Below, piece after piece: positions 26,145 to 44,154 of a stretch of DNA of 64,000 nt (its first letter is position 1; each line of letters starts with the position of its first letter). The stretch lies in IMG/VR virus record IMGVR_UViG_3300033070_001371, positions 32,001-96,000 of that record, one strand, 5' to 3'. This DNA comes from a virus (taxonomy: Duplodnaviria > Caudoviricetes). A model generated the notes under the pieces. It had not been told where the DNA came from, did no database searches, and worked only from the letters and a program-made list of their open reading frames with translations. Made by a program: the position numbers and the translations under genes.

Positions 26145-26610
26145 GTTGTTGGGCGCGCACGCTTCTGGCGCGCCCCCGAAAAGTGCGCCGTCCGGCAGCG
26201 AGCACGTAGCGTGTCTCCAGGCGATCCTCGCTAAGAAGTACGCGCTGCTGCTCGCCTACGTTTCGTACGGCGATCAGCTCCGGTCGATCTGCCGGGACGG
26301 CGTGTTCGAGCACTTTCAAGAGCACATCAAGGAAGAACGCGACGCCATCTACCAACTCAACAAGAAGATCACGGCGCTCGGCGGTGATGCTGTCGTATCT
26401 CCAGGCCATGTGCCTTCCGTGCCGCTCGACCAACCTCGCGCCGTGTTCGAGGCAGTGCTGAACTTGGAGCAGGCCGTCGTCGCGCTGTGGTCCGATTTGT
26501 TCCACAAGACCCCCGACGACGTGCCGCTCAACGCGATGGCGCAAGATGGTGCCCTCGTCGACCAGCAACACGCCGACGACATGCGGCGCTACCTTCGGAG
26601 TGAGTGCTGA
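26125..26610 (+). CDS. Ferritin-like four-helix-bundle protein
   Basis: FQEHIKEERDA..KKITALGG, LEQA, QQHADD resemble bacterioferritin/Dps helices. Confidence 0.65.
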   Translation: MFDFLNELLGAHASGAPPKSAPSGSEHVACLQAILAKKYALLLAYVSYGDQLRSICRDGVFEHFQEHIKEERDAIYQLNKKITALGGDAVVSPGHVPSVPLDQPRAVFEAVLNLEQAVVALWSDLFHKTPDDVPLNAMAQDGALVDQQHADDMRRYLRSEC

Positions 26611-26987
26611 TGCCGGACCTCAAGGACATCGCGCGCGGCGTAACGACCCGCCTCAAGAAGCGTCAGCGAGGTTTTCACTTCGACAAGGAGCCGGGTTTTT
26701 ACGGCGTAACAAAGAGCTTCGGCGACGCCGCCAAGCAGAAACTCGCCAGCGAAGCGCGCGCTCGTGCGATCCGCAAGGTCGCGGCGAAGTACGCGCTGCT
26801 TGACGAGTCGGGCGAACCTGTGGAAGCGCTCGCGAAGCTCTTTGCACAGAGTAACTTCGGTTACGGCGACGCGCCCGTCGCCCCGAAGCGTACCGGCGAC
26901 CCCCTCTGGGGCGCGTCGATGGGTATGCCGGCGGAGCCCGGCGACCGCAATGGGCTGAGCCGCAATCTCACGTACGGAGGAGTTTGA
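26610..26987 (+). CDS. Small putative head-internal protein
   Basis: TGATG-coupled; AIRKVAAKYAL motif. Confidence 0.6.
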   Translation: MPDLKDIARGVTTRLKKRQRGFHFDKEPGFYGVTKSFGDAAKQKLASEARARAIRKVAAKYALLDESGEPVEALAKLFAQSNFGYGDAPVAPKRTGDPLWGASMGMPAEPGDRNGLSRNLTYGGV

Positions 26988-27325
26988 TGATCACGAAGGA
27001 AGCGCTCGACGCCGCGCGGTCGCGCGGTGCACAGAAGATCTTGGCTCGCTACGGCCTCGACAAGGTCAGCGGAATCATGTCGACCCTCGGCAGCGCGGCT
27101 ACGCGCGCGCTCGGCGCCGGGACCAAGGCGTACCAGCACGGCGGCGGCAGCATGATGCAGAACGTCGGCAAGGGCATCGCGGCCGGAGCCAAGGGCTTCC
27201 AGCGTGCGGGCGGCGTGCCGGCGGCGGGCAAGGCGCTCGGCGTGGCCGCAGCGGGAGGGGCGGCAGCGTACGGCGCGGGACGCGCGTTCGGCGCCGGGCA
27301 GGCCGCGTCGCAGCAGCAGCAGTGA
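26987..27325 (+). CDS. Gly/Ala-rich putative virion protein (glycine zipper)
   Basis: KILARYGLDKVS motif; hydrophobic ALGVAAAGGAAAYGAG segment. Confidence 0.65.
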   Translation: MITKEALDAARSRGAQKILARYGLDKVSGIMSTLGSAATRALGAGTKAYQHGGGSMMQNVGKGIAAGAKGFQRAGGVPAAGKALGVAAAGGAAAYGAGRAFGAGQAASQQQQ

Positions 27326-27345
27326 CACACGGGCGCGAGGCAGCG

Positions 27346-27357
27346 TAACCTTTCGCC
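27346..27357 (+). promoter_or_regulatory. -10 box TAACCT, 6 nt before the beta'-C ATG (leaderless)
   Basis: TAACCT ttcgcc ATG; no RBS. Confidence 0.6.
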
Positions 27358-29157
27358 ATGCCCACGACGGTCGGCCAGTTCCTGATCAATGACGTGATGC
27401 CCGAGGGTTACAAGATCTCGGGTCCGCTCACGAACAAGGCGCTACACGACCACGTCGTCGGTCTCGCCAAAGCGGACCCTCAGAAATACGTCTCGACGGT
27501 GCTCGCGCTCAAGCGGCGCGGCGACGAAATCGCGACGCTCGAAGGCATCTCGGTCGGGCTCGATGACATTGAGCCCGACTACGAGGCGCGCGACGCGATC
27601 GTGCGCCCGGCGCTCGCGAAGCTCGACAAGCTCAAGGACCCGGGAGCCCGCGAGCGCGTGATCGTCGAGACGCAGGCGCAACTGCTCGCGCACACCAAGC
27701 AGCACCCTGGTTCGATGACCCACATGGCGCTCTCAGGAGCGCGCGGCAATCCGGCGCAGCTCATGAAGATCGTCGCCACGCCGCTCGCGACAGTGAATCC
27801 AAAGCACGGCGTGGTTCATCAGCTGATCGACCGCTCGTACTCCGAAGGCCTGACTCCAGCCCAGTACTGGTTGACAGGACCAGAGATCCGCGAGAACGAG
27901 GTCAAAGCGCGCATCTCCGTCTCGGAGCCGGGAGAGATGGCCAAGGTTCTCGTCGCCAACATGATCTCTAAGGTCGTCACGACGACCGACTGCGGGACCA
28001 TGAACGGCGTAAAGATGTCGATCGACGACGGACACGTGCTCGATCGCTTCACGCAGGCTGACCACGGCTTGCCGCGAAACACCCTCGTCACGCCGCAGCT
28101 CGTCCAGCAACTCAAAGCGCGCCACGTGGACCGTGTACTTGTGCGCTCGCCGATGACATGCGTCGCGCAACACGGGGTCTGTCAGATGTGCCAGGGTCAC
28201 AACGAGAAGGGACAACCGCACCCGATCGGCATGACTGTAGGCGTGCGTGCCGCGCAAGCGATGGCTGAACCGTTGACGCAGATGGCGCTTTCGTCGCGCC
28301 ACGGCACGCTCACGGTGAAGGCCACGGACAAAGCGCCGACCGGCTTGAAGGGTGTGCGCCAGCTGTTGGAAGTTCCTGCCGCTTTCCGCCACGAAGCGGT
28401 GCTGGCGCCAGAGCACGGCACCGTGACGAAAGTCGAGAAGGCGCCGCAAGGTGGCCACTATATCTACCTCGGCGCCAAGAAGGTCTACGCCGGGCCTGAC
28501 CTGACGCTGCGCGCGAAGGCGGGAGACGTGGTCGAGCGCGGCGATGCGCTGACCGACGGCGTGCCTCACCCTGCGAAGGTCGTCGGCTACAAAGGACTTG
28601 GTGCCGGTCGTGCGTACTTCGTAGACGCACTGCACAACTTATACAAGAATGAAGGGATCAACCTTGATCGCCGCCACTTGGAACTTCTCGCCAAGAGTGA
28701 GATCAATCACGTACGGCTACTCGACGCTGATCCCGACCACCCAGAGCTGCTCAAGGGCGACATCGTCAACTACAACGCCTTCCGCGAGGCGTACCAGAAG
28801 GGCTCCGCTCGCGTGCAGGTAGATGACGCTGTAGGGAAGCGGCTGGGGCAAGAGGTGTTGCATCACACTGTCGGTACACCCGTGACGCCTGCGCTCGCCC
28901 GCGATCTCAAAGCGCACGGGGTTGCTGAGGTCTATGTCAACCGGTCTATGCCTCCGGTGGAATTCGTCATGAAGCCGTTCACAATGAATCCTCTGCTGGA
29001 GAAGGACTGGATGGCCCGCCTCGCGCACCGCTATCTCAAGAGCACGATTCAGGAGGCGGCACACTTCGGCGAGACCGCCGACATCCACGGAACCCACCCC
29101 GTACCGGCGTATGCTTTCGGCGCGGAACTTCACCATGGAGCCGGCGGTGCATTCTGA
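27358..29157 (+). CDS. Phage RNA polymerase beta' C-terminal half
   Basis: SGARGN, SYSEGL, DCGT, RSPMTC..VCQMC zinc site, trigger loop VGVRAAQAMAEPLTQMAL, GLKGVRQLLE, RHLELL. Confidence 0.93.
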   Translation: MPTTVGQFLINDVMPEGYKISGPLTNKALHDHVVGLAKADPQKYVSTVLALKRRGDEIATLEGISVGLDDIEPDYEARDAIVRPALAKLDKLKDPGARERVIVETQAQLLAHTKQHPGSMTHMALSGARGNPAQLMKIVATPLATVNPKHGVVHQLIDRSYSEGLTPAQYWLTGPEIRENEVKARISVSEPGEMAKVLVANMISKVVTTTDCGTMNGVKMSIDDGHVLDRFTQADHGLPRNTLVTPQLVQQLKARHVDRVLVRSPMTCVAQHGVCQMCQGHNEKGQPHPIGMTVGVRAAQAMAEPLTQMALSSRHGTLTVKATDKAPTGLKGVRQLLEVPAAFRHEAVLAPEHGTVTKVEKAPQGGHYIYLGAKKVYAGPDLTLRAKAGDVVERGDALTDGVPHPAKVVGYKGLGAGRAYFVDALHNLYKNEGINLDRRHLELLAKSEINHVRLLDADPDHPELLKGDIVNYNAFREAYQKGSARVQVDDAVGKRLGQEVLHHTVGTPVTPALARDLKAHGVAEVYVNRSMPPVEFVMKPFTMNPLLEKDWMARLAHRYLKSTIQEAAHFGETADIHGTHPVPAYAFGAELHHGAGGAF

Positions 29158-29779
29158 CTTCGCGGATCGACTGAACGCCGTAAAGACAGCGGCCCGGGCG
29201 CGCGTGCTCGGACGGTACGGGCTTAAGGACCTGTTCCGCGAGCACACCATCGCCCCGGCTGCGCCCGGTGTCACCAACAAGGCCAAAGCATTCGGCAAAC
29301 ACGTCGCAGAATTCGGACGCGAGGCTGTCTTCGGTAGTCCGATCACCGTCGCAAAGCAGCTCGCTGACCGCTACAAGCAAACCGGTAGCGTCGCCCGAGC
29401 GATGGGCGGCCACGCCAAAGACTTCTACCTCTCACCCGGATCGCCGACATGGCTGAAGGCCCTATCCCTCGGTATGCCCGCGATGGAGCTCGGTAACATC
29501 GCGCTGCGCGGCGACCCAGAGACTCGCAAGGGCGACATCGCACACGCGATCTCGGGCATGGCGGCTGCGCCGTTCACGGCGCGACTCGGCCTGCTCGGCA
29601 TCCCAGTCCAGGGCGCGGTACAGGGTGCCGCGCGCTACTTGGGGTCGAAGTTCGACCCGAAGCCTGCCCCAACACCCACGCCCGAAAATATCGAGCTGGA
29701 CGTACCGAAACACCTGATGCGCGCGTGGAAGAGCAACTCTCCGCTCGCGCTGAGCGACGACAACCCCGCTGCGACCTAG
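29147..29779 (+). CDS. Putative head-internal protein
   Basis: GTG start after GGAG; VKTAARARVLGRYGL motif; hydrophobic segments. Confidence 0.6.
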   Translation: MHSDFADRLNAVKTAARARVLGRYGLKDLFREHTIAPAAPGVTNKAKAFGKHVAEFGREAVFGSPITVAKQLADRYKQTGSVARAMGGHAKDFYLSPGSPTWLKALSLGMPAMELGNIALRGDPETRKGDIAHAISGMAAAPFTARLGLLGIPVQGAVQGAARYLGSKFDPKPAPTPTPENIELDVPKHLMRAWKSNSPLALSDDNPAAT

Positions 29780-29810
29780 ACTACGCACTGGAGCCAAGGA
29801 GCACCCCCCA

Positions 29811-31418
29811 ATGACGACGACTCTGTTCACCCGCACGCTTCTCAAGGGCATGGCCGACGGCATGTCCGACGCCGGGCGCATGGCGCCCTTCGCGAACGAC
29901 GACCTCGCCATCGGGGTCTTCGACAAGATCGCGACCGACCTCGGTCTGCCGCAGGTCCTCGAAGAGCCGCTGCCGAACGACACCTACGTGAAGATGGGCC
30001 AGTGGCTCATCGACGCTTCGGAGACGGCCGTGGCGAGCGGTCACGCTCCCTCGGCGTCGCTCCAGGCGATGGCGAAGCAGGCGTCGCACATGCCGCTGGA
30101 AGAGCGCGCGATGAAGATCGCCGCGTTCATGATGCACAAGACGGCGGAAGAGGCGTCGCTGAACGGCACCGGGTCGAACACCCCGGAGAGCGCGACGCAG
30201 ACCAGCGCGGTCGCCGCGCTCGACCAGAAGAACCGGTCGTCCCTCCAGTACCTCGTCGGCATGGGCAAGACCGACATGCCCGAGGGTGGCGTGCTCGGCA
30301 AGCAGATGCCGCACCCGATGGCGCCCCAGGGTCCGGCGATCAACAACAGCCTCACCCACCTCGACAAGCAGGCCAGCGAGAAGATCGCGCGCGCCGCGAC
30401 GTTCGTGCAGGGCCTCGCCAAGCGCGGCGCGGCGGTGACGCCGAAGACCGTGCTCGCGTCAGCAGCCCTCGCCGAGGGTGGAGCGGCGGGTCTCGAAGTG
30501 ATGGCGCACATCGTGTCGACCGTGAAGACCGCCGAGGAACTCGACGGCATGCTCGACCACGTGATGGGCGCGCAGCAGGCGCACGGCGCCGAACCCGATC
30601 CGGCGCTCGTCGCCGCGATCGAACAGGTGCTGATGGAGCATGGCCTGCTCGGCGACGACGACGGCGACGAAGGTGCGCCGCCGAACGGCGACGACCAGGA
30701 GCCGCCCAACGCGGGCGAAGGCGACGGAGATCCCAAGGTCGCGGCCATGAAGGACGTGATGAAGGGACTCAAGAGCAAGGCGCGCGGCGCGGGCAAGTCC
30801 GTGAGCGGCGCTGCGGCGAAGGCCAAGGGCGCGGTGGGCGCGGCAGCCTCGAAGGCGAAGGAGAAGGCGAGCGACGTCGGAGCCTCGATCGCGGACGCAG
30901 CCAAGAAGCACGGACCGGGGGCCGCCGTGGGCGCGGCTGTAGGCGCGGCCGGCGGCACGGCGGCGATGCACGCCGCCAAGAAGGACAAGGGCGAAGACAA
31001 GGAAGCCGCACTGCTCGCCGTGCTGAAGGCGGCAGCAGACGGCTCGCTCAACGAAGTCGGCGAGAACACCCCGGAGAGCGCGGCGAAGGACAACGCCAAC
31101 GCCAAGCTCGACGAGGAGAACCGCGCGAAGAACGAGTACCTCAAGGGCAACGGCAAGACCGACATGCCGAACGTCGGACACGTCGGCGCCTCCATGGATG
31201 CGCCGAAGGGCCCGGAGAAGGTCAACCCCGACACGACGCCTGCACGCGAGACCAAGAGTGCGAGCTTCGACGAAGCGGTGAAGGCAGCGGCGGCTCAGTG
31301 GGGCGGCAAGCTCCCTGCGACGATGGGTCAGAACGAGAAGCGCGCCCACGTGATCGCGCTCGCCGGCATGCCGGAAGAGCTGCGCGAGGGCTACGTCGAC
31401 CAGTTGCGACGGAGCTGA
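29811..31418 (+). CDS. Putative head-internal/scaffold-like protein with a duplicated module
   Basis: AAGGAG RBS; many K-x-A sites; two copies of SLN..G.NTPESA..LD..NR..YL.G.GKTDMP. Confidence 0.75.
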   Translation: MTTTLFTRTLLKGMADGMSDAGRMAPFANDDLAIGVFDKIATDLGLPQVLEEPLPNDTYVKMGQWLIDASETAVASGHAPSASLQAMAKQASHMPLEERAMKIAAFMMHKTAEEASLNGTGSNTPESATQTSAVAALDQKNRSSLQYLVGMGKTDMPEGGVLGKQMPHPMAPQGPAINNSLTHLDKQASEKIARAATFVQGLAKRGAAVTPKTVLASAALAEGGAAGLEVMAHIVSTVKTAEELDGMLDHVMGAQQAHGAEPDPALVAAIEQVLMEHGLLGDDDGDEGAPPNGDDQEPPNAGEGDGDPKVAAMKDVMKGLKSKARGAGKSVSGAAAKAKGAVGAAASKAKEKASDVGASIADAAKKHGPGAAVGAAVGAAGGTAAMHAAKKDKGEDKEAALLAVLKAAADGSLNEVGENTPESAAKDNANAKLDEENRAKNEYLKGNGKTDMPNVGHVGASMDAPKGPEKVNPDTTPARETKSASFDEAVKAAAAQWGGKLPATMGQNEKRAHVIALAGMPEELREGYVDQLRRS

Positions 31419-31511
31419 TCGCCTCCGACTTGATAGTCTTGCGCTAGGTCAGAACGCCTGCTGCCGTATACTTCGGTAGCAGGCGTTCGCCTTTTGAGGA
31501 GACCCACCCCG

Positions 31512-34106
31512 ATGACCATGAACGGCTTCCCCCTCTCGCAGTCGCCCCGCACGCAGGGCTTCGCGCAGCCCACGAGCCCCGACGACGAGGAGGAGCTCTT
31601 CTCCAAGGGCTTCTCGGACCTCGCGTACCGAGCGTTCCAGAAGACACACCCCGAGCTCTACGGTGACCTCGTCTCGTTCCGTGTGTTGGCAACCGACGCG
31701 CCGAACGGCGAAGGCGTCGGCGCGTTCATTCTCAAGCGTGGTCCCGAAGTGTTGTTCGTCCCGTCGGTGATTGCGGATAACGCCGTAAAGCCGCTCGACA
31801 TGATGTACGTCCGGTCCAAGGACCGCTTCTATCCGCTGACGTCCGAGTGGATCGAGAAGGCCACCTCGGGCGGCGTGAGTTCGCTCGGACAGGGCATCGA
31901 GCCTCCGAAGGACCTCAACACCGACGTGGACATCCGCAACGTCGTGGTGCCGCCGACGACGGGCCGCTACAGCTACGCCGACGAGTTCGATCCTGCGTCA
32001 GTGCGCGACGACGAACTGCTCGACGTGTTTCGCGCGGCGTACGCCAACGAGAAGCGCGCAGCGAACGACGCCCCGCTCGTCTTCCCCGAGCTCGTGAGCC
32101 GCATGCCGGACACGATCAAGACGGCGTTCGCAAAGTGGCTCAGCAAGCGACCGCAATACTTCCGCAAGATGGCTGAGGTCTACGGTGCGCGCGTACTGCG
32201 AGACGCCTTCGCAGTGCACGAAGCCCCTGCCAAGACGGCCGCCGGGTTGCACGACGAGGTCCCGCTCAAGCACGACGTCTACCTCGCTGTCGCGGGTATG
32301 CCGCTTCAGGAAGTTCGCAAGGAGATCGCACCGGGCGACGTACCCGAGGCGTACAAGGCGCTGCGCTACCACGGCTTCTACATCAAGGATCGGCGCGGCG
32401 CCGCGCTCAACGACGTCGCCGTCGGCGACGAAGAGACGCTCGCACTGACGGCCCCGGAGCACCCGGGTGTCTACCGCGTCTACCTCGCGGACGGCACGAG
32501 CGCGAAGGCGCTGGTTGTCCCGCACCCGGTCTGCGTGGCTCCTCCGAAGACCGACCATCAGGCAATGGCCTACGGCGCCTACGACCGCAAGACGATCCGC
32601 GACGTGACGCCGCCGTACAGCAGCGGCGACAAGAAGTACCTCGTGCTCCTCGCCGACGGACGCGGTGGTTGCGTTTCGGAACTCGTCGCTGAGCCCGTCG
32701 TCGCTGACTCATTCGACGAAGTGGCGGCGATGCTCAAGTCGATGACGCGCGAAAGCCCGCAGGCCAATCAACATGGCGTGTTGATCTCGGCCGACGACCT
32801 GACGCTGCGCGCGACGGAGCCCTTCTTCGCCGACCAGCCCACCTCGCGAGGCGACATGGTGTCGTTCGGCGCCGGGTACAACATGACCGCCGTGATCTCG
32901 AAAAAGATGCGCGGCTCGAAGGTCGTGGCGCCGCCCGCGCAGAACGTCATGGTCTTCCCGAACAGCTACCGCTGGTTCCCGATCAAAGAAGACATCTCTG
33001 AGCGTGATCTGCTCACGCGTCCCCAGCTGATCGGGCGCGCGATCGAGGCGAAGATCGAGAAGACTGGCGCTGCGCGCATCAAGGTCGCCCGTGACCACGA
33101 TGGGTTCCGTGTAGGCGAAGATCGCGCGAAACTCTCGCCGATCGAAGCCGTCGTGAAGGTCGCAAACCTGTACGGCGTAAGCGTCCCTGACGCCTCGCGC
33201 ATCGTCGAAGCGGTGGCGAACGGTTTGGCGATCAACGCATGGGCGACGCCCAAGACTGCCGCGCCAAAGGGCGGCGGCGACGAAGCAGCGGCCGACCCGA
33301 GCCAGGACCCGAACGCGATGACAATGGACCCCAACGCGATGGCAGCTATGCAAGCGCCGCCGCAGCCGACGGGCATTGATCTCGCGATCTCAGAGAAGTT
33401 GCAGCTGATCGACCAACAGCAGCAGAGCCTGGATCAGATGCGCCAGATGCTCACCGAGCTTCAGGGGCGTGCTCAGGGCATCGACCAAGGTGGCGGCGCA
33501 ATGGCGGCCCCGATGGGTGCCGCTGGCATGATGGCAGGTCCCGCGCAGGCCGTGATGGGACAGCCTGCGATGGCACCGGTGCCCGGGATGTCGCCGCAGC
33601 AAGCGCCTCCGCAGGGCCCGCCGCAGGGCGCGCCCATGGAGGGCGGCGCTCCGATGCCCGGAGGCGATCCCAACGCGATGGCGATGCAGGGCGGCGATCC
33701 CAGCATGATGCAGGGACAACCTCCTCCGCAGCCGGTCATGCCGAAGGAGCCCAACCCGGCTCTCTTCAGCGAACAGATTGCGCCTCAATTTTTGAATCAG
33801 GCGATGGAGCTCGATCAAGACGGCGTGTTCGACGCGTCGGCCGTGGCATCGCTTGCGAACGTGCGCAGCATCCGCGACCTGCTCCAGAACTACACGCCCA
33901 GCCTCGACAACGCGCTCGACCGTCTCGGGCGCACGCTCTTGCTGCTCTACGTGAAGAGCAAGCAGATCCGTGAGCGAATCGGCGAAGAGGCGTACACCTC
34001 GCTGGAACAGGTCGTGCGTGACGTGTTCCGAATGCTGGGCGACGCGGTGCTGTCGCTGGAGCAGTACGGCGATCAACTGTTGCCCAGCGGTGCGCGCTCG
34101 GCATAA
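31512..34106 (+). CDS. Large putative head-internal protein
   Basis: GAGGAG RBS; K-x-A sites; Met/Gln/Pro-rich linker. Confidence 0.75.
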   Translation: MTMNGFPLSQSPRTQGFAQPTSPDDEEELFSKGFSDLAYRAFQKTHPELYGDLVSFRVLATDAPNGEGVGAFILKRGPEVLFVPSVIADNAVKPLDMMYVRSKDRFYPLTSEWIEKATSGGVSSLGQGIEPPKDLNTDVDIRNVVVPPTTGRYSYADEFDPASVRDDELLDVFRAAYANEKRAANDAPLVFPELVSRMPDTIKTAFAKWLSKRPQYFRKMAEVYGARVLRDAFAVHEAPAKTAAGLHDEVPLKHDVYLAVAGMPLQEVRKEIAPGDVPEAYKALRYHGFYIKDRRGAALNDVAVGDEETLALTAPEHPGVYRVYLADGTSAKALVVPHPVCVAPPKTDHQAMAYGAYDRKTIRDVTPPYSSGDKKYLVLLADGRGGCVSELVAEPVVADSFDEVAAMLKSMTRESPQANQHGVLISADDLTLRATEPFFADQPTSRGDMVSFGAGYNMTAVISKKMRGSKVVAPPAQNVMVFPNSYRWFPIKEDISERDLLTRPQLIGRAIEAKIEKTGAARIKVARDHDGFRVGEDRAKLSPIEAVVKVANLYGVSVPDASRIVEAVANGLAINAWATPKTAAPKGGGDEAAADPSQDPNAMTMDPNAMAAMQAPPQPTGIDLAISEKLQLIDQQQQSLDQMRQMLTELQGRAQGIDQGGGAMAAPMGAAGMMAGPAQAVMGQPAMAPVPGMSPQQAPPQGPPQGAPMEGGAPMPGGDPNAMAMQGGDPSMMQGQPPPQPVMPKEPNPALFSEQIAPQFLNQAMELDQDGVFDASAVASLANVRSIRDLLQNYTPSLDNALDRLGRTLLLLYVKSKQIRERIGEEAYTSLEQVVRDVFRMLGDAVLSLEQYGDQLLPSGARSA

Positions 34107-34115
34107 TCACTCATC

Positions 34116-34820
34116 ATGCGGCCTGCTATCGCGCCATGGCACAAGTACGAGGAGATCGCGGCGCTCGCGGAGAAGACGGGCGTGGAACCGCCATCGGACG
34201 CGCTCGACCTCGCGCTGTTTCGGCTGCTGCGCGGACAAGCCGAAGACGTCGTCGTGACAACGGCGTACGAGATCTTTCGGTCTTCGTACCGCCACGTCAT
34301 GGATGCGCTGTGCTTGTGTGTCGCAAAGGACACCGAAGTCGAAGCAGCGTTGGAGTTGAAAGCGGGTGTTTACGCCGTTTACCGTACGCTCTTCTTCGAT
34401 CGCACGGTGTTCGCCAGCGTGTTCGCGATGCGGCAATACGTCCAGCAGTTGCGACTGACCAAAGAAGAGCGAGAGATCTACGAGCTGGCATTGGTGGAAG
34501 GCGCGCCACGCCTGCTCGATCGCTATCGCCTCACGCCCCGCACGTCGCCGGACCCGCAGGAAGTGCTAGAGGACATGATGGGCGAAGCTCACAGCCGCGC
34601 GTTCGAGCATCGCGGCAAGCCCATCACCAGCAAGGTCGCGCAAGAATCCTTCAAGTGGGGACGCGCCGCCGCCGCAACAGCCGCCGCGATCAAGACATCG
34701 TCGTCGGCCAACCGCATCTCTGACGCACTCGCGTCGCTGGAATTCGCGCTAACAAGCAAGAACTCAACGAAGACCCCCGAGGAGCTCGGCGTGGAACGTG
34801 ACGAGATCATCAAGGGTTGA
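34116..34820 (+). CDS. Hypothetical protein
   Basis: 234-aa ORF in the late operon. Confidence 0.7.
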   Translation: MRPAIAPWHKYEEIAALAEKTGVEPPSDALDLALFRLLRGQAEDVVVTTAYEIFRSSYRHVMDALCLCVAKDTEVEAALELKAGVYAVYRTLFFDRTVFASVFAMRQYVQQLRLTKEEREIYELALVEGAPRLLDRYRLTPRTSPDPQEVLEDMMGEAHSRAFEHRGKPITSKVAQESFKWGRAAAATAAAIKTSSSANRISDALASLEFALTSKNSTKTPEELGVERDEIIKG

Positions 34821-34848
34821 AAAGGCCCCTTACCTTTGAGGCACGCCG

Positions 34849-35700
34849 ATGGCTACATGGGATAACGCTGACTTCGACCGCGAGGCGACTGCTATCGCGC
34901 GCGCTTACTGGGCCGGCCGCGAGCAGAACGGCGCCGCGCTCAGCGAGCTCGCGACGAAGACCGCGCGCGACAACGGCCTCAACCCCGAACAGATCCGGCG
35001 CCTGTGCCGTAACGCCAACACCAAGGCGTTCGAGCAGAAGCACGCTGCCCTGAAGGGAGAGCCCGACCGTACGCCCAACTTCGAGCTTGCCGACCCTGAG
35101 TCAGTGATCGCCAGCCTCCACCAATCGGTGGCGTTGGCGCACACGAAACAAGCATCGGCCGAGTATCCTGATCTGCGGGACGAGTTCGCGCCTGCACTCG
35201 ACCCGTCACTCTTCGCGCAGGAGAAGATCGCAGCGCTCACGCACGAGATCGACGGGTTCCTGGGACCGCGACGCTCCCCGCTGATTGAACTGCGCCGTGC
35301 GGAGAAGCTGGCGAGCGAGCTGGCAATCGAGCGCCACGCCCTCAACTTTGCGTGGGACGACGCGCTCAGCGTCATCGCGGCGCAGGCAAAGTTTCAAGGC
35401 TGGCGCCACGACGACTTCGAGAAGAACGCCGTCGCGCTTTTCGGCGCCGACGTGCTCCCAGAGCTAAACGCCGTGCGCCACCGCTGCCGCCTCGGCGCAC
35501 TCGGCGACGGCGCCGCCGAGGATGAAGTTGCGGCGAAACTCGCCGCGTTGCAAGACACGTGGGTTGGAGTGCCTGACGCGCTGACGGCGAAACTGAAGGA
35601 AGCCATGGACGTGCGCGCCAAGTTCGCGTCGCTCGTCGCGCGCCAAGAGGAGGTCGCGACCACGATTGCGAACCTCAAGAAGGTCGTGCGCCATGGATGA
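34849..35700 (+). CDS. Putative head-internal protein
   Basis: GLNPEQIRRLCRNAN; six K-x-A sites. Confidence 0.72.
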   Translation: MATWDNADFDREATAIARAYWAGREQNGAALSELATKTARDNGLNPEQIRRLCRNANTKAFEQKHAALKGEPDRTPNFELADPESVIASLHQSVALAHTKQASAEYPDLRDEFAPALDPSLFAQEKIAALTHEIDGFLGPRRSPLIELRRAEKLASELAIERHALNFAWDDALSVIAAQAKFQGWRHDDFEKNAVALFGADVLPELNAVRHRCRLGALGDGAAEDEVAAKLAALQDTWVGVPDALTAKLKEAMDVRAKFASLVARQEEVATTIANLKKVVRHG

Positions 35701-37006: not shown

Positions 37007-37233
37007 ACATCAACACGCTCGTCTCACCGCGCCTGCGCGCGGCGCTGCGCACTCACGGGTGGTCGAAGCTCGCGTTCGAGGTCGTCCACCTTCAGGGAGG
37101 CTACCCGCCGTCCGCGCCGACGCTGCCGGAGGTCGTCAAGGCCCTGTCCGTGAAGATCGCGGTCGACCATGTCAATCAAGGCATCGTCCGCGACGGCATC
37201 GCGGCGTACAAGGAGCTGCACGGTGAACGCTAA
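37003..37233 (+). CDS. Small putative virion protein
   Basis: ATGA-coupled; SKLA and VKIA sites. Confidence 0.6.
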   Translation: MNINTLVSPRLRAALRTHGWSKLAFEVVHLQGGYPPSAPTLPEVVKALSVKIAVDHVNQGIVRDGIAAYKELHGER

Positions 37234-37975
37234 CGCCGTAAAGACCCGCGAGGCGCGGGCGCTCTGGGGTGCCGTGAAAGCGGCTGCGGTGCGTCGCGGA
37301 CCTGCGCTGCTCGACGGCCTCGCGTCCCTCGCGCTGGAAGCGTGGGCGACGAGTGACGCCGGCACCAAGCTCAGCGAAGACCGCGCGACGCGCGAGGCGT
37401 TCGTCGCGTCGCTTGTCGGTGCCGCCCTTGTCGACGCAACGCTCGACAAGCTGGCTGCCGAAGGCGCGTACACCACACCTGAAGTCGAGTTCTTGCGGGA
37501 CCTGAACGCAGAAGCTGCTCTACGTGATCTCGCCCGCTTCCAGAAGAACGCAGGGTTCGCGTCGAGTCTGCTCGCCGCAATCAAAAGCCACCCTGCCGCT
37601 GTAGGTTCGGTCGGAGGCGGTCTCGCGGGTGCGGGATTCGGCGCCTACGCCGATGACGACGATCGCCTGCGAGGCGCACTGCGCTTCGGCCTTCCAGGCG
37701 CAGCAATGGGTGCGATGCTCGGACACGGGGCAGGACAACTCAGCGCCGAGATGCGCGAGGAGCGCGCCGCTGACGCCGCAAAGGCACTCGAAGGTACTCG
37801 CGCACAAGAACTGCACGCTGCACGGCTCAAGGCGCTCGCACAGCAGGCGAAGGATCGCAAGCGCACGGCCGTCGAGATCGCGCGCGACGCAGAACTTCAT
37901 GCGGCGCGACTGAAGCTCATGAAGGCGCAGACCGAAGCCGCGAACCGCGCAGGCAAGTCGCGCGTTCGTCCCTAG
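37223..37975 (+). CDS. Glycine-zipper putative virion protein
   Basis: GSVGGGLAGAGFG and GAAMGAMLGHG; ELHAARLK repeated twice. Confidence 0.65.
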   Translation: MNANAVKTREARALWGAVKAAAVRRGPALLDGLASLALEAWATSDAGTKLSEDRATREAFVASLVGAALVDATLDKLAAEGAYTTPEVEFLRDLNAEAALRDLARFQKNAGFASSLLAAIKSHPAAVGSVGGGLAGAGFGAYADDDDRLRGALRFGLPGAAMGAMLGHGAGQLSAEMREERAADAAKALEGTRAQELHAARLKALAQQAKDRKRTAVEIARDAELHAARLKLMKAQTEAANRAGKSRVRP

Positions 37976-38011
37976 TACGTCGCTGCCCAGCAGTCGTATC
38001 TTTCCCTCGCG

Positions 38012-39919
38012 ATGGACAAGCTCCTGGAATTGGACGAACGCTTCCCCAAGACAGGGGAGCCAACGGTGCAGCTGGTCGCGTGGCGCGGAGCGCGCGGCGG
38101 CCTGAGCATCGAGAAGCGCGCATTCACCGAGAGCCGTTCACCGCTCTACGACTTTCTCTCCACGGTGCAGCCTGAAGCTGGCGTCTCGTACATCCTCGTC
38201 AACGCGCTCGGCGCGTACGAGTTCTACGACGACAATCGCAACGGCGACGGCTTCCCGAACGCGCCGTACAAGGTCGGCGAGCTCGCGGCGTGCGGGCATC
38301 CAGAGTGCACTGGATCGCTCGACGGCTGGATCGCAGAGCCCGAGACGCTCCACCACCACTACCAGTCGTTCGAGAAGCACGGCGGCATCTACAAGCACCA
38401 CGTCAACAAGGACCCGACGAAGTCGCTGGGCTGGATCAACAAGGCGCTGCTCAACCCGTACATGCACCGGGTCGAGCTGCTGCTGAAGTTCGTCAACGGC
38501 CGCGACCCGGAGATCGCCCAGCGCATCGGCGACGGCGACTTCCCCGCCGTGTCGATGGGGTGTCACGTGCGCTGGGATGTCTGCACGATCTGCGGACACC
38601 GCGCCCCGACGCGCGCGCAGTACTGCGAGCACGCGCTGCGCATGCTGCGACGGGTGTTGCCCGACGGTCGCAAGGTCGCGGTGCTCAACCCGAGCCCGAA
38701 GTTCTTCGACATCAGCTTCGTTTTCCGACCGGCGGACCCCACGGGCTGGATGATGAAGAAGGTCGCGGGCGAAGCGCCGCTGCGCTACAGCGCCGACCTC
38801 GGCGAGCAGCTGCGCGCGTACGAGGCCCGCGCGATCAAGATCCGCACCGGTCGCGAGAAGACGGCCGAAGCCCTCGGCGGATCTTACGGCGTACAGGCCG
38901 CGAGCCTAGTGCGCGAGTGGCCGCGTCTACCAGACGCCGTCTACGCGGCAGCCAAGACGGCGGGCGTGACGAGCACGCTGGCGTCGCTCGCGGCGTGCGG
39001 CGTCGTGCTTGCGACGGGTGAAGTTATCGACCTGTTCGCGAAGTCGGCGGGCGTCACGCCGACCGATGCCGACTTGGACCGGCTTGTCGCACTGGAGCCT
39101 GTGCTGACCGAAGTCGTAGCGCGCTACCCCGAGGTCGAAACGAAGCTCGGCTCGCTGGTCGCGTTGCGCGTCGATGCCGTGCGAGACGAACTCGTTGATC
39201 CGCTCGGAGGGTGGGTCGAAAAGCGCGGGGGCCTCGCCGACTACCTCCGCCAGCATGCGTACGCGCCGAGCGAATTGGGGCAGCTACCGATCGGTCCGGG
39301 CGCGTACTACCGCGCAACCGAGCCGGCGAAGACCGATATGTTCACGCTCTCCGATCCGTATACAGGTCGTCAGTACCAGACGACGCGGGGCGCAGCGATG
39401 GCGGCGCACGACGAGGACGTGAAAGCACAGCTCGGCTCGACCGCGCTGCTCGGCGCGCTCTACGCAGGCGGCCTGCGCGCCGCGCTCGGCCCTGGAGCCG
39501 GTGTGTGGTCGCTGCCGGCGGGCCTCGCGGCGGGGTACGCAACGCATCGCGCGCTGCGCAAGCGCTTCCGTCCCTACCGCTACAGCCGATACATCACCGA
39601 CCAAGGCGTCCCCGTGTCGGGCGGAACGGAGTTCGTGAAGGTCTCGGCGTTCGAGCGCCCCGCGCGCGCCGACGTCGTGCACAAGGCCGCGTTTGACCTC
39701 GTCGAACGTGTCGGCCGTGCGGACTACGACGCCTTGCTGGCAAAGATTGCCCGCGACGGCGGCGCTGCTTACGCGCGGTGGCTCGCGGAAACCCCGCTGA
39801 GTGAAAAAGTCGCCGCGCTCGTCGCGGGTGCGGAGATCGAAACCGGCGACGCGCACGGCGCGCCGGGTCTGAATGTCGCGCGACTCGTCTCGAACATCAG
39901 TCGCTGCGTTTGGCGCTGA
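38012..39919 (+). CDS. Probable prohead protease with a long C-terminal extension
   Basis: NRNGDGF, YKHHVNK, VSMGCHV..CTICG..CEH, FFDISFV resemble serine-type prohead proteases; lies upstream of the capsid genes. Confidence 0.65.
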   Translation: MDKLLELDERFPKTGEPTVQLVAWRGARGGLSIEKRAFTESRSPLYDFLSTVQPEAGVSYILVNALGAYEFYDDNRNGDGFPNAPYKVGELAACGHPECTGSLDGWIAEPETLHHHYQSFEKHGGIYKHHVNKDPTKSLGWINKALLNPYMHRVELLLKFVNGRDPEIAQRIGDGDFPAVSMGCHVRWDVCTICGHRAPTRAQYCEHALRMLRRVLPDGRKVAVLNPSPKFFDISFVFRPADPTGWMMKKVAGEAPLRYSADLGEQLRAYEARAIKIRTGREKTAEALGGSYGVQAASLVREWPRLPDAVYAAAKTAGVTSTLASLAACGVVLATGEVIDLFAKSAGVTPTDADLDRLVALEPVLTEVVARYPEVETKLGSLVALRVDAVRDELVDPLGGWVEKRGGLADYLRQHAYAPSELGQLPIGPGAYYRATEPAKTDMFTLSDPYTGRQYQTTRGAAMAAHDEDVKAQLGSTALLGALYAGGLRAALGPGAGVWSLPAGLAAGYATHRALRKRFRPYRYSRYITDQGVPVSGGTEFVKVSAFERPARADVVHKAAFDLVERVGRADYDALLAKIARDGGAAYARWLAETPLSEKVAALVAGAEIETGDAHGAPGLNVARLVSNISRCVWR

Positions 39920-39943
39920 CTACCCTACGGAAGGAGAGCCACC

Positions 39944-40540
39944 ATGAACCTCGAAGACACGCTCCACAAGAAGATGCCGAAGAACGCCAGCGCGCAGCCC
40001 ACCGCTGCGCCCGACGGCAAGCCTGCCACCAAGACGGCGAGCGCAGTGGCCGACGCGCTCGCGTCCGTGACGCAGCCCTCCACCAAGACGGCGGCCGAGA
40101 CGAGCCCGGCGGGTGCGGCGGCCCCTCTGTTCGACAAGCTCGCGGCAGAGCTCGCGGCGCAGGACCAGGAGGGCTCGCTCAAGCTGGCTCAGCTCTACGG
40201 CGCCAGCATCGCAGACGGATTCATGTCGCAGCTCGGCATGTACGAGAAGGTCGCCGAGAGCCTCGTCTCGCAGCAGGCCGAGAAGGTCGCAGGCGCGGCG
40301 GGCACGCGCCAGGGTGACGTGTATCTCGACCCCGAGATGGTCGCGCTCGTGAAGGAGGCACAGGAGAACCCGCGCGCCTTTCTCGCGCGTGTGCAAAAGG
40401 CGGCCGAAGCCGAAGAAGCACAGCTCAAGGAGGCCGAGGACAAGGAAGCCGCCGAGCTGGAGCAGGTGGTCCAGGTCAAGGCCGCCGAGCACTACGCCCA
40501 CGGCTACGAGATCGGCAAGCTCTTGGTGGGCGCGGGATGA
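39944..40540 (+). CDS. Putative scaffold/core protein
   Basis: Helical, acidic, ten K-x-A sites in 198 aa; strong RBS. Confidence 0.7.
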   Translation: MNLEDTLHKKMPKNASAQPTAAPDGKPATKTASAVADALASVTQPSTKTAAETSPAGAAAPLFDKLAAELAAQDQEGSLKLAQLYGASIADGFMSQLGMYEKVAESLVSQQAEKVAGAAGTRQGDVYLDPEMVALVKEAQENPRAFLARVQKAAEAEEAQLKEAEDKEAAELEQVVQVKAAEHYAHGYEIGKLLVGAG

Positions 40541-40725
40541 ACGCCGAACGCCGCCAAGCGCTGATCGAGGCGCACCGCGACCTGCGCAAGGAGGCGTTCG
40601 AGGCCGTCGCTCCGAAGGTCGCGGAGTACTTCCGTGACGCCGAAGCCGCACTCGGAGAAGCGAAGCACGCTTCCGAGAGTGCGGCCTTCGATCCCACCCT
40701 CCGCCGCCACCTCGTGGAGCCGTAG
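40537..40725 (+). CDS. Small putative head protein
   Basis: ATGA-coupled; three K-x-A sites in 62 aa. Confidence 0.6.
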   Translation: MNAERRQALIEAHRDLRKEAFEAVAPKVAEYFRDAEAALGEAKHASESAAFDPTLRRHLVEP

Positions 40726-41106
40726 ATGCCAACCCTCGACGAAACCCTGCGCACGCTGCCCCGGGCGTCTCGCCCGACAACCAAGACCGCTTCCGTGCTA
40801 CCGGAGTCGCTCGCGGGACAGGTGCGAGCCCTGGCTGGCGCGCTGCGCGACCTGCCCGAGCCTCGAATCACGTGGGGGAGCCTGAACGCCGTAAAGATGG
40901 CAGGCTTCCGCTCACCGCCGCCCGCGCCCCCCGCGCGAGAGGTACCGGAGGACGACGACCGTCCCAGTGCGCCGCTGCGAAAGTTGGCGCACGCCGTACG
41001 GAGCGCCGAGGACTTGCGTGCCGTACAGCTCTTCGAGAAGTCCGCCCTCGCGCTGCGTGCGGTGCGGGGTCTTACACTCCTTCGCGAACGGATCTCGTCG
41101 CCATGA
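40726..41106 (+). CDS. Small putative head protein
   Basis: Abuts the previous stop; four K-x-A sites. Confidence 0.6.
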   Translation: MPTLDETLRTLPRASRPTTKTASVLPESLAGQVRALAGALRDLPEPRITWGSLNAVKMAGFRSPPPAPPAREVPEDDDRPSAPLRKLAHAVRSAEDLRAVQLFEKSALALRAVRGLTLLRERISSP

Positions 41107-41489
41107 CCACCGCGCTCACCAAGATCGCCTCCGCCCTGGACCTGCTCGCTGATGAACTCGACGCGCAGCCCGTCGCGGCGCCTCCGGCCGCAACGCCGGA
41201 AGCGAAGACTGCCAGCAGCGTGGACCTCATGCGCGAGCTGTACCGACAGCACACTGGCGAAGACCTTCCTGCCGCTGTACGGGACAAGCTCGCGGCGGCC
41301 GACGACCCTGAGATGCAATCTGTCTTCGGCAAGATGTTGAAGACGGCTGCGCCTGAGCGCCCGACGCCCCTGGGCGCGCCGAGTGAAACGCGTGCCCTCG
41401 ACGCAGCGCCCGCAAACAGCGCCGAAGCCACCAAGCTGGCGTGGGACGCGTTCGAGGACACCATCCTCAACGGGACCGACAACGACTGA
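41103..41489 (+). CDS. Putative scaffold-like protein
   Basis: ATGA-coupled; five K-x-A sites in 128 aa. Confidence 0.65.
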   Translation: MTTALTKIASALDLLADELDAQPVAAPPAATPEAKTASSVDLMRELYRQHTGEDLPAAVRDKLAAADDPEMQSVFGKMLKTAAPERPTPLGAPSETRALDAAPANSAEATKLAWDAFEDTILNGTDND

Positions 41490-41548
41490 AGCGACGACCC
41501 GCGCCGCGCCTCCGCGACGACTAACATCCACGACGAGGTAGTGATCCA

Positions 41549-42067
41549 ATGAAGCTCAACTCGAACTACGACCTGATCTCCGCAGAGCCGAACCCGGGCG
41601 GCCGTGCCGCGCTGTGGATCTCGGACGCTCTTGCGCAGGAAGCTGCCACCGCGATCGACGCAGGCATCGGCGTCACCACGCCCGACACGCAAGGCACCCC
41701 CCAACCGGGTACCGTGGTGCCCGGCATGTGCGTGGCGCTCAACGGCAACGGCTACTGGGACCTCGCGACGTCGCCGACGCTCGGCACGCCCTCTCTGCCC
41801 CTCGCGATGGGCTTCGTGCACGGCGGCGACGACGACTACGACGGCGCCATGCTCGGCAAGCTCGTCGTGCTCACCGGCACTGCTGAGTTCCTGACGGACC
41901 AGTTCAACGGAGCGAGCTTCCCGCCGGGCACCCCGCTGGTCGCGAACGCCGGCAAGTTCGAGGCGAAGACCAACGCCGCGTCGACCCTCCAAGTCGTGGG
42001 CTTCGTCGGCAACCGTGGTCTCGCCAATGGCGTCCTCCACGTGATGTTCTCCGGGCTGCGAGGCTGA
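41549..42067 (+). CDS. Probable capsid decoration/cement protein
   Basis: Small beta-rich protein (GKLVVL.G, PGTPLV..GK) immediately upstream of the MCP. Confidence 0.6.
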   Translation: MKLNSNYDLISAEPNPGGRAALWISDALAQEAATAIDAGIGVTTPDTQGTPQPGTVVPGMCVALNGNGYWDLATSPTLGTPSLPLAMGFVHGGDDDYDGAMLGKLVVLTGTAEFLTDQFNGASFPPGTPLVANAGKFEAKTNAASTLQVVGFVGNRGLANGVLHVMFSGLRG

Positions 42068-42137
42068 TCGCGCGCTCGCGCGGTCGACACACAATCGAGG
42101 GCACTAACCTCTACAACGAGATCGGGAGACGACGACG

Positions 42138-43061
42138 ATGTACAACACCGAGACGGTCCAGGCCAACGCAACGGCGTTGAACCAGAAGTTCGTGAGCATG
42201 CTCAGCTCCGGCAACACCAAGCTCGCGGAGGAGGCCGGCACGGCGTTCATCCGCTCGATCGTCCGCCAGGAAGCGGCGGTCCGCATGGTGCTGCCCCCGC
42301 AGCCCCTCCAGGACGACGAGATCGACCGCGACGTCGACTCGGACGAGCCGCGCAAGATCGTGGAGAAGGAGCCTGACAGCTCCGCCACGTACGTGCAGTT
42401 CGACGGCACGCCGCGCGCGCGCTGGTTCCGTGGCAAGCGCTACGTGGTCTACTTCGGCAAGACCCAGAGCGACTTGTTCACGAAGAGCAAGTTCAAGCTG
42501 ATGTCGTACCAGAACGACATCCGCAAGATCTTGGCGGACAACTCGGTGAAGGACCTCGCCGACCAGGAAGACCTGTACTTCCGCCGCACGTGCCTCACGC
42601 TCGTGAACCGCAACTCGGCGAACCAGCGTACCAGCGTGGGCGCGTTCACGAACGGCGCGTTCGTGAAGGGCTTCCAAGCGATGGACAACCGTCGCCGCCC
42701 CATCGGCAAGATGCTCATGACCAACTCGCTGTACCGGGAGGCGATGAACCTCCCGGCCACGCTGATCGGCGACTCGATCGCGCGGAAGCACTACGAGGAG
42801 GGCATCGACAAGGAAGAGCGCCTCTGGGGAATTCCGGTCATCACGACCGCGAAGACCGACATCTACAACCCGCGCGAGTGCTGGATCTTCAGTCCGCAGA
42901 ACTTCCTGGGGAACTTCTTCCTCCTCCAGGACGCGACGCTCTTCATCGAGCAGCGCGCGGACATCATCACGTTCTTCTCGTACGCCGCGCCCGGCATCGG
43001 CATCGGCAACGCCGAGTCGATGCAGCAGCTGGTGTTCGACACCCCGCCCTCCTCGATCTGA
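42138..43061 (+). CDS. Major capsid protein (HK97-like fold, inferred)
   Basis: 307 aa, very strong codon bias, position after protease/scaffold/decoration genes, DQED..F and LWGIPVI patterns. Confidence 0.72.
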   Translation: MYNTETVQANATALNQKFVSMLSSGNTKLAEEAGTAFIRSIVRQEAAVRMVLPPQPLQDDEIDRDVDSDEPRKIVEKEPDSSATYVQFDGTPRARWFRGKRYVVYFGKTQSDLFTKSKFKLMSYQNDIRKILADNSVKDLADQEDLYFRRTCLTLVNRNSANQRTSVGAFTNGAFVKGFQAMDNRRRPIGKMLMTNSLYREAMNLPATLIGDSIARKHYEEGIDKEERLWGIPVITTAKTDIYNPRECWIFSPQNFLGNFFLLQDATLFIEQRADIITFFSYAAPGIGIGNAESMQQLVFDTPPSSI

Positions 43062-43099
43062 TCGCTGAGCCGCTGAGGCCGTAGGGCTATCCTTCGGGT

Positions 43100-43480
43100 A
43101 TGCCCTACGCCTCCGACCGCCAGCGTCGCTTCTTCCACACCGCCACCGCGCGAAAGCACGGCATCACGCCCGCCATGGTGCGTGAATACGACGAGGCGTC
43201 GCGCGGCAAGGACCTCCCCGAAAAGGCCGAGAAGAAGGCCGAGGGCGCCTCCGACGGCGCGACAAGCGGCGTCTCGACGACCGTTGCAGCGCCAAAGCCG
43301 CCGTCGTCGAGCGGCGCGCCGCAGTACAAGAGCGAGGCTGCGAAGGGTGGCCCGCTCCGATTGCCGTGGCCCGGCGACTACAAGCAGAACTTTCTCGAAT
43401 CCTCCGCGTCGGCGGCGCAGCGCTCAACCGCCGACAAGTTCCAGGACGGCGAACGCACGACGATGCCGGTGACGCGATGA
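43100..43480 (+). CDS. Small virion-associated protein (MPxxSxxQ..LPEK type)
   Basis: MPYASDRQRRFF..EYD..KDLPEK; leaderless start. Confidence 0.6.
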   Translation: MPYASDRQRRFFHTATARKHGITPAMVREYDEASRGKDLPEKAEKKAEGASDGATSGVSTTVAAPKPPSSSGAPQYKSEAAKGGPLRLPWPGDYKQNFLESSASAAQRSTADKFQDGERTTMPVTR

Positions 43481-44154
43481 CGCCCACCGAGCGCCGCGTC
43501 CGCCACCTCGTGCCCGTGGCCGAGGGAACCGGGGCCGCCTACCCGGCGAGTCGCTCCAACGGAGCGTCGCGCAAGGAGCAGGTGCCCCTGGAGGTCGGCA
43601 CGTCGTTCGACGCCAACGACTTCTTCAACTGGTATGACCGCCCCGTCGACGAGGGGCCTCCATACGCCGTAAAGGGCGCCGCCCACGCCCACGACCGCAT
43701 GGAGGAGCGCACCCCGTTCGCGCGCAGCAACGTCCGCCCGCTCCAGCGCGCGGTCGACGCCCTCGGGCTACCGCCGGGCAGCTACCACGTGCCGTTACGC
43801 GGCCAAGACGGAACCGTGCTCGGTTACGCCCAGTTCAAGGCTGTACCCGGGCGCAACCACCCAGTGCTTGCGACAGTGCTCGGGCGCGAGATGAGCCCGA
43901 GCGGAGCCGACGTAACGACCCTCGTAAAATCAGCAGGGCCTACGCCTGAAACGAATGTCGCACCGATAGCCGAGGGCAAGTTTGACACCGACCACATCGA
44001 CCCTCGTCCCCCGGAGTCACGCGCGTGGAACCTCGCGCACCGTCTGGCGGGCCGCGACGAGACGAAGCGCTACGCAATCCGGCGGGCCTTCGACCATATG
44101 GCCGAACCGACGGGCGACGCGCAGGAGTCGCCGGTGGAGTCGCCACAACCATGA
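43477..44154 (+). CDS. Putative head-cargo protein with a possible RelE/BECR-like module
   Basis: HAHDRMEER..LATVL segment flanked by VKGA and VKSA. Confidence 0.55.
   Translation: MTPTERRVRHLVPVAEGTGAAYPASRSNGASRKEQVPLEVGTSFDANDFFNWYDRPVDEGPPYAVKGAAHAHDRMEERTPFARSNVRPLQRAVDALGLPPGSYHVPLRGQDGTVLGYAQFKAVPGRNHPVLATVLGREMSPSGADVTTLVKSAGPTPETNVAPIAEGKFDTDHIDPRPPESRAWNLAHRLAGRDETKRYAIRRAFDHMAEPTGDAQESPVESPQP

Follow-up and report, generated by a model that had tools for sequence, protein, structure and literature searches.

The window analysed here is a 64,000-nucleotide stretch (bases 32001-96000) of one 119,215-bp uncultured phage genome with approximately 65% GC, and its gene content marks the virus as a large tailed phage. 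A megablast search against 50,697 phage genomes found no close record. The subject of this report is the head module of this window, in which a prohead protease (open reading frame (ORF) 38012) lies among genes whose products are rich in the three-residue motif Lys-x-Ala (K-x-A). The gene order of protease 38012, scaffold-like protein 39944, three small proteins, 41549 and the major capsid protein (MCP) 42138 is kept in relatives L001-L013, in the cultured Salmonella phage Arash and in the cultured Vibrio phage D69. The features are listed below, with the K-x-A count of each protein given against the count expected by chance, and with p values for global and for local (30-residue) shuffles in that order.

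38012..39919, + strand: prohead protease of 635 amino acids (aa), matching PHROG 18299 (head maturation protease) at 3.8e-8; 9 K-x-A versus 3.65, p 6e-3 and 1.9e-3.
38114..38122, + strand: leader K-x-A of the protease (K35-R-A37), a candidate autoprocessing site, at least 90% conserved in 28 proteases at 25-40% identity.
38759..38767, + strand: post-domain K-x-A of the protease (K250-V-A252), a candidate release site, at least 90% conserved in 55 sequences.
39944..40540, + strand: scaffold-like, Ala-rich protein of 198 aa; 13 K-x-A versus 3.5, p <5e-5 and <5e-5.
40537..40725, + strand: 62-aa protein; 3 K-x-A versus 0.67, p 9e-3 and 1.6e-2.
40726..41106, + strand: 126-aa protein; 4 K-x-A versus 0.56, p 3e-4 and 6e-4.
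41103..41489, + strand: 128-aa protein; 5 K-x-A versus 1.26, p 1.4e-3 and 1.7e-3.
34849..35700, + strand: 283-aa head-module protein; 9 K-x-A versus 2.84, p 1.5e-4 and 1.5e-4.
29811..31418, + strand: 535-aa Lys/Ala-rich protein with a glycine-zipper segment; 14 K-x-A versus 8.05, p 0.016 and 0.069.
1..294, + strand: C-terminal part of an eighth K-x-A-rich protein (353 aa, genome 31233-32294); 10 K-x-A versus 2.8, p<1e-3.
42138..43061, + strand: MCP of 307 aa, 40% identical to Arash gp226; one K-x-A at residues 28-30 (nt 42219-42227).

The 37 likely genes were translated and K-x-A was counted in each protein against 2,000 composition-matched shuffles; key genes were re-run with 20,000 global shuffles and 20,000 shuffles within 30-residue segments. 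Seven head-module proteins (38012, 39944, 40537, 40726, 41103, 34849 and 29811) together contain 57 K-x-A, compared with 20.5 expected from the global shuffles (z 9.2) and 22.1 from the local shuffles (z 8.7). Half of their lysines (57/114) are found inside the motif, and the fraction rises to 31 of 41 in 39944, 41103, 40726 and 34849, the set that was aligned with orthologues. Among 1,600 combinations of residue pair and spacing in the seven proteins, K-x-A is the strongest outlier and the runner-up has a z of 4.2. Other spacings of the same residues are not raised (KA z -2.5, KxxA 0.0, KxxxA -1.0, AxK 0.2), nor are substitutes for either residue (RxA z -0.5, KxG -0.5, KxS -1.7). Together, the two kinds of shuffle and these controls rule out an artefact of composition. 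An earlier, sequence-only reading of this DNA had claimed that K-x-A saturates the head-region proteins, and that claim holds against composition-matched shuffles. The motif is present in the genes it named, and its counts were mostly too low (39944 has 13 sites rather than 10, and 34849 has 9 rather than 6); 38012 and 29811, each credited with eight or more, have 9 and 14, and the counts for 41103 (5), 40726 (4), 40537 (3) and the MCP (one, at residues 28-30) are confirmed.

The excess is restricted to a small part of the genome. A scan of 727 six-frame ORFs of the 119-kb genome, with a threshold of p<=0.02 and at least three sites, selected eight ORFs, comprising seven contiguous ones around the protease and the eighth protein at genome 31233-32294. 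K-x-A occurs at or below expectation in the MCP, both RNA polymerase genes and the downstream genes (ORFs 45733, 44025 and 49544 have none). The sequence-only reading had also described the motif as reappearing in the outlying genes 59868 (1 versus 0.28), 60478 (2 versus 0.30, p 0.02) and 60783 (4 versus 2.3). The motif can be found there, but not above chance, and none of the three passes the genome scan. The idea that K-x-A predicts which proteins enter the capsid applies only to proteins with a statistical excess and not to single sites (MCP, 59868, 60478, 60783), which are at chance level.

The scaffold-like protein 39944 has 13 of its 16 lysines in K-x-A; in its orthologues (n=9, down to approximately 29% identity) several sites are kept as islands and others shift position. 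All three lysines of 40537 lie in the motif, likewise in L001, L003 and L007, as do all four lysines of 40726, whose four sites all recur at the same or nearly the same position in the 38%-identical orthologue of L007. In 41103 the motif takes in five of six lysines and is found in the orthologues from L006, L007, L013, L088 and L091. The larger protein 34849 occupies the same slot upstream of the protease as Arash gp220 (10 K-x-A versus 3.0) and D69 VPHD69_0268 (11 versus 3.9); its site positions are conserved, and orthologues carry 10 versus 2.6, 9 versus 2.2, 15 versus 3.6 and 9 versus 2.5. Protein 29811 is a weaker case in this genome, with clear orthologues (16 versus 8.1 in L001 and 21 versus 7.3 in L006) and a weak Pfam match to Gly-zipper. 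The eighth protein begins 767 nt before the window and is the sole match of the six-frame scan outside the head module; orthologues in L102 and L103 (82% and 53% identity) have 9 versus 2.75 and 11 versus 3.0, with the sites aligned. Its gene follows what look like tail or baseplate genes, at a distance of approximately 30 kb upstream of the head module. The Ala content of the K-x-A-rich proteins ranges from 14 to 23%.

The product of ORF 38012 is best explained, judging from a structural model, as a serine prohead protease with the fold of T4 gp21 and probably of the herpesvirus assemblins, fused to a helical scaffold-like C-terminal region. Sequence searches alone are of limited use for this protein. 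The match to PHROG 18299 is weak and covers residues 116-208, no Pfam family was found at E<=0.01 and hence no Peptidase_S77 match, and a sequence search of the PDB gave no match. The tblastn search matches annotated capsid maturation proteases of actinophages. The AlphaFold2 model (55 sequences; mean predicted local distance difference test score (pLDDT) 82.7) has a catalytic domain at residues ~42-239 followed by a long helical C-terminal extension. With VIA-align, residues 19-240 of the model are best matched by T4 gp21 (5jbl_C; Z 9.8, root-mean-square deviation 2.6 A, 133 aa), approximately 3 Z units above the next unrelated structures. The proteases of pseudorabies virus (PrV), herpes simplex virus 2 (HSV-2), human cytomegalovirus (HCMV), Kaposi's sarcoma-associated herpesvirus (KSHV) and Epstein-Barr virus (EBV) align over 110-130 residues with Z 5.2-6.3, and unrelated MCE-domain structures fall in this range as well. 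Foldseek with the full-length model is weak, with a probability of 0.80 for 5jbl_B. The segments YKHHVNKD and VSMGC are nearly invariant in the family: neither H130 nor S181 varies in the sets of 28 and of 55 members, and H129 is invariant in the 28 and at least 90% conserved in the 55. The catalytic residues of T4 gp21 are H85 and S140 (PMC12991175), and a weak hhalign alignment (E 0.025) places S181 on S140 (VSM on GVSS) and KHH within 2-3 residues of H85. An exhaustive HMMER search with the protease found 3,100 cluster representatives (50% identity) at E<=1e-3 and 533 at E<=1e-30, and the family is almost entirely uncultured. In eight relatives an intein-like (Hint) insertion lies directly after the catalytic VSMGC, with the Cys as first inserted residue, and doubles the length of the protease ORFs to approximately 900-1070 aa (L007:8363-11401, L013:9989-12976, L059, L062, L064, L066, L068 and L069); the protease of the window lacks this insert.

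Two K-x-A sites bracket the catalytic domain. A leader K-x-A, typically in the form L-E-K-T-A-S/E, is present in 46 of 47 family representatives compared with 10 expected. Of 108 representatives, 107 also have a K-x-A no more than 45 aa past the FFDIS strand, 79 of them at exactly +14. In the window protease, K35-R-A37 and K250-V-A252 fall in segments of pLDDT<50 (residues 34-41 and 240-259), the only low-confidence segments flanking the domain.

Relatives were collected by scanning IMG/VR with the protease and the MCP, which gave 95 loci at 93% to ~30% protease identity and 36-71% GC. Syntenic proteins are enriched in K-x-A in every lineage examined (L001, L003, L006, L007 and L013; GC 49-71%). 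An unselected set of every + strand ORF lying up to 10 kb from the protease was also tested in 30 loci (GC 36-71%): in 16 of them K-x-A was the top one of 400 a-x-b pairs, and in 29 its z exceeded 2. The substrate sets of six lineages, including Arash and D69, have K-x-A z values of 7.0-12.5; besides gp220, Arash gp223 (8 versus 2.9) and gp225 (7 versus 1.7) contribute. Weaker signals come from the protease gp19 of Bacillus phage G (8 versus 2.5) and from mycobacteriophage Alice gp90 (19 versus 8.8). In distant orthologues, with a background identity of 29%, the motif Lys is conserved in 51% of cases and other Lys in 28%, and the motif Ala in 60% and other Ala in 28%. Many K-x-A appear in the alignments as islands of identity within divergent Pro/Thr/Ser/Ala-rich linkers, and others move while their number is kept. 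The extended logo, [L/F/M]-[E/T/V]-K-[T/V/I/L]-A-[S/A/G/E]-[A/D/E], is the same in four lineages, in which Thr at x is enriched 3-4x and Ser after the Ala 3-4.4x. The near-identical phages of this group also show an extreme synonymous shift in GC over 38012-44154: the MCPs of L001 and L003 are 96-99% identical to that of the window, with a GC content at third codon positions (GC3) of ~0.96-0.98 in L001 (71% GC), 0.94 in the window phage (65% GC) and ~0.4 in L003 (49% GC).

The same a-x-b shuffle test was applied to T4 gp67, gp68, gp21 and gp22 as a positive control, and IxE (z 4.3) and LxE (z 3.7) were the top two pairs. The known motif of T4 gp21 is I/L-x-E (PMC12991175, PMC5694885). In the window phage and its relatives, LxE has a z of 4.1 in the window (27 versus 13.7) and of 3.6 in L003, a close relative; in L006, L007, L013, Arash and D69 it stays between -0.8 and 1.6, whereas K-x-A has 7-12.5 in all of these genomes. 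No enrichment of [ASG]xE was found in any of the seven lineages (the window phage and relatives). Glu-type motifs of the T4 or phiKZ kind were therefore rejected as the conserved signal.

The MCP differs from the proteins above in having a single K-x-A (1 versus 1.33 expected), in the context TKLA-EEAG. Its assignment follows from Arash gp226, which is annotated as MCP and is abundant in the Arash virion proteome (PMC10585845), and a profile comparison matches it weakly but colinearly to gp27 of phage G (PDB 6wkk, deposited with the full-length sequence). A sequence search of the PDB gave no match, and the AlphaFold2 model (12-sequence alignment) reached a pLDDT of 40.6, so that it was left out of the fold search. 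K28 and A30 are invariant in 12 orthologues, and so are T4, E5, T6, N15, F18 and G25. Because these six residues upstream of K28 are equally invariant, the MCP site is a candidate only. The mature start at EEAG is a prediction that draws only on the invariant K28 and A30 within an N-terminus that is conserved throughout.

Taken together, the 38012 protease probably reads Lys-x-Ala and cuts there inside the prohead, most likely after the Ala and with Lys at P3. Characterised enzymes read P3 and P1 (L/I-x-E, A/S/G-x-E, and V/L/I-x-A followed by S), which is why a cut after Ala with Lys at P3 would be expected, and the preference for Ser, Ala or Gly at the next position would fit a small P1' residue. 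The protease would release itself through cuts at the K-x-A of the two flexible linkers that flank its catalytic domain. With 13 sites over its 198 aa, the scaffold-like 39944 would be cut to peptides of approximately 15 residues, as T4 gp22 is, and 40537, 40726, 41103, the larger 34849 and 29811 and the protein of genome 31233-32294 may be trimmed or fragmented. The MCP would lose residues 1-30. A specificity for K-x-A and not for Glu had been assigned to 38012 by the sequence-only reading. The fold, the conserved His and Ser, the bracketing sites, the confinement to the head module, the persistence of the excess in very divergent relatives, the lack of a consistent Glu-type excess and the T4 control speak for it, while cleavage at K-x-A, the choice of bond and the loss of MCP residues 1-30 are what we infer.

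Several observations weigh against this mechanism. Conservation extends to the part of the MCP N-terminus that precedes K28, and a disposable propeptide would not usually show this. Six of the nine K-x-A sites of the protease are in confidently predicted helices, perhaps out of reach of a protease, and the fixed position of the post-domain K-x-A could mean that it serves the structure of the fold. In T4 core proteins K-x-A has a z of 2.2 although it is no T4 site, a baseline below which the statistic is uninformative; on their own, z values of 2-3, such as those of phage G, Alice and several loci, are therefore not diagnostic. In the virion proteome of Arash, both the protease and the K-x-A-rich proteins are recorded as present at 80-100% coverage, and complete degradation and clearance would predict otherwise. 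This proteome comprises 116 proteins including ribonucleotide reductases, its coverage is implausible (100% from 2 peptides) and its search specificity is unstated, so that the coverage values cannot be used for inferring cleavage.

Some of these observations suit other explanations of the motif. K-x-A might be a docking or capsid-targeting motif, or a site of lysine modification, which is bound uncut by the inner capsid shell, the portal or the protease and loads scaffold and cargo. The statistics and conservation show a selected short motif and not cleavage as such, the motif-rich proteins are still detected in the Arash virion, and the MCP and protease sites adjoin conserved sequence. Docking is nonetheless unlikely, as nearly all family members have the motif on either side of the protease's own catalytic domain, in flexible linkers where autoprocessing is expected, and 13 copies in a 198-aa scaffold-like protein suit degradation into short peptides better. 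Moreover, the enzyme family follows a P3-x-P1 rule with the same spacing as a-x-b, and in T4 the same statistic picks out true cleavage sites. A different possibility is that the protease reads K-x-A but cuts elsewhere, either after the Lys or one residue further on (K-x-A-E, with Glu at P1 in some sites). Sequence alone cannot fix the scissile bond; HK97 gp4 cuts between Lys and Ser, and Glu follows the Ala in approximately 15% of sites, e.g. KLAE in the MCP and KTAE in many protease leaders. The residue at +3 is mostly Ser or Ala, however, with Ser enriched as noted in four lineages, and Glu is therefore dispensable. Arg does not stand in for Lys as it would in typical basic-P1 proteases, and the structurally closest enzymes use P3 and P1, the herpesvirus ones with Ala at P1 and Ser at P1'. 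A cut at another bond is thus quite improbable. It is very improbable that the excess is a functionless by-product of Lys/Ala-rich helical or low-complexity sequence or a DNA-level motif, even though the proteins are Ala-rich and T4 core proteins show the mild excess described above. The z stays at 8.7 in local shuffles, no other spacing or related pair is raised, and many sites are in Pro/Thr/Ser-rich linkers outside helices. The excess and many exact positions persist down to approximately 29% protein identity and across 36-71% GC and a GC3 of ~0.4 to 0.96, which rules out a nucleotide-level motif.

Other parts of the window provide the context of the head module. Multisubunit RNA polymerase (RNAP) genes lie directly upstream of it at 21597-29157 (a 1515-aa ORF and the 599-aa ORF 27358). 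ORF 27358 has RNAP beta' domains (Pfam RNA_pol_Rpb1_5, 1.6e-14) and no K-x-A compared with 3.9 expected. RNAP beta, beta' and sigma rank among the most abundant proteins of the Arash virion preparation (PMC10585845), and this suggests a packaged RNAP. PHROG annotation of the genes downstream of the head module gave a match of ORF 50095 to baseplate hub/lysozyme and nothing else. In some small proteins a stretch of the form A-R-x-R...(K/R)-x-x-x-x-Y-(G/A)-(L/F) is found beside K-x-A (26604-26987, 26984-27325, and 59868-60128 on the - strand), e.g. ARARAIRKVAAKYALL and LARLRAIRKVAAEYGF, and it is weaker in 29111 and 60478. The strict expression AR.R...(K/R)Y(G/A)L has 3 real matches versus 0.5 expected. 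This stretch could be a targeting leader.

The gp21-type prohead proteases for which a measured specificity was found, those of T4, phiKZ, 201phi2-1 and SPN3US, all cut after Glu (PMC5694885, PMC10052503). A survey of the literature on prohead protease, assemblin, gp21 and cleavage specificity found no Lys-x-Ala rule. The Arash paper does not mention any protease (PMC10585845), and the phage G paper lists gp19 as maturation protease with no specificity stated. K-x-A as a new specificity class of a known protease system is well supported, if indirectly, and stands unrefuted, and the cultured members (Arash on Salmonella, D69 on Vibrio, and phage G) make the rule directly testable. If true, Lys-x-Ala would be a second specificity class in the gp21 fold, with Ala at P1 and Ser at P1' resembling the herpesvirus enzymes, and the code would link phage and herpesvirus specificities. 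For thousands of phages known from metagenomes, sequence would then suffice to read the processed head proteome, distantly encoded proteins included. In this clade the head modules are without Pfam or PHROG annotation, and the motif therefore provides a sequence-only handle on scaffold, cargo and processed components. Phage protease activity reportedly triggers cyclic-oligonucleotide-based anti-phage signaling system (CBASS) immunity (PMC12991175), and what the proteases of large phage clades prefer to cut is thus also relevant to the question of which sensors of the host could detect these phages.

Among known systems, phiKZ gp175 and SPN3US gp245 also belong to large phages whose head module contains or adjoins RNAP genes. 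In phiKZ and SPN3US, processing of many head proteins takes place at a three-residue motif, and the protease also cleaves itself (PMC5694885, PMC10052503). These enzymes differ from 38012 in cutting after Glu in A/S/G-x-E, a motif that is not enriched in the window phage or its relatives. T4 gp21 (MEROPS S77; PDB 5jbl), whose substrates are gp22, gp67, gp68, the internal proteins, gp23 and gp24, is the best structural match to 38012, with 133 of 166 residues aligned and the catalytic His and Ser in equivalent places. As in T4, the protease gene of the head module has the genes of a scaffold-like protein and of the MCP for neighbours, the candidate core substrates are small, helical or disordered proteins with many a-x-b signals, and the enzyme bears its own sites; one and the same statistic brings out both codes. 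The differences are in the signal (Lys-x-Ala versus Leu/Ile-x-Glu, the Glu-type motifs not being conserved in the clade of the window phage), in the lack of a Pfam S77 match with approximately 18% identity in the structural alignment, and in size, as 38012 has 635 aa with the long helical C-terminal extension and gp21 has 212 aa.

The herpesvirus assemblins (pUL26 of HSV and PrV, pUL80a of HCMV; MEROPS S21) have release and maturation sites of the form (V/L/I)-x-A followed by S, and pUL26 consists of a protease domain with its own sites and then a scaffold region. Similarly, the catalytic domain of 38012 (ending at ~239) lies upstream of a helical scaffold-like region, K250-V-A252 resembles the R site, and the K-x-A motif has Ala at the presumed P1 and prefers Ser at P1'. 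The two adjacent conserved His (H129 and H130) and S181 of 38012 can be set beside the Ser-His-His triad of the herpesvirus enzymes. The fold comparison with the 38012 model gives Z 5-6.3, a range shared with unrelated MCE-domain structures. K-x-A has Lys at P3 where the herpesvirus sites have an aliphatic residue, each substrate has many sites as opposed to two, and 38012 adds a conserved N-terminal leader site and belongs to a tailed virion with a bacterial host. On balance, we lean towards Lys-x-Ala followed by a cut as the code of a very large, almost wholly uncultured gp21/assemblin branch (3,100 clusters at 50% identity), which would reach Arash and D69, and probably phage G and cluster-C mycobacteriophages, and which would share Ala at P1 with the herpesvirus enzymes instead of the Glu of T4 and phiKZ.

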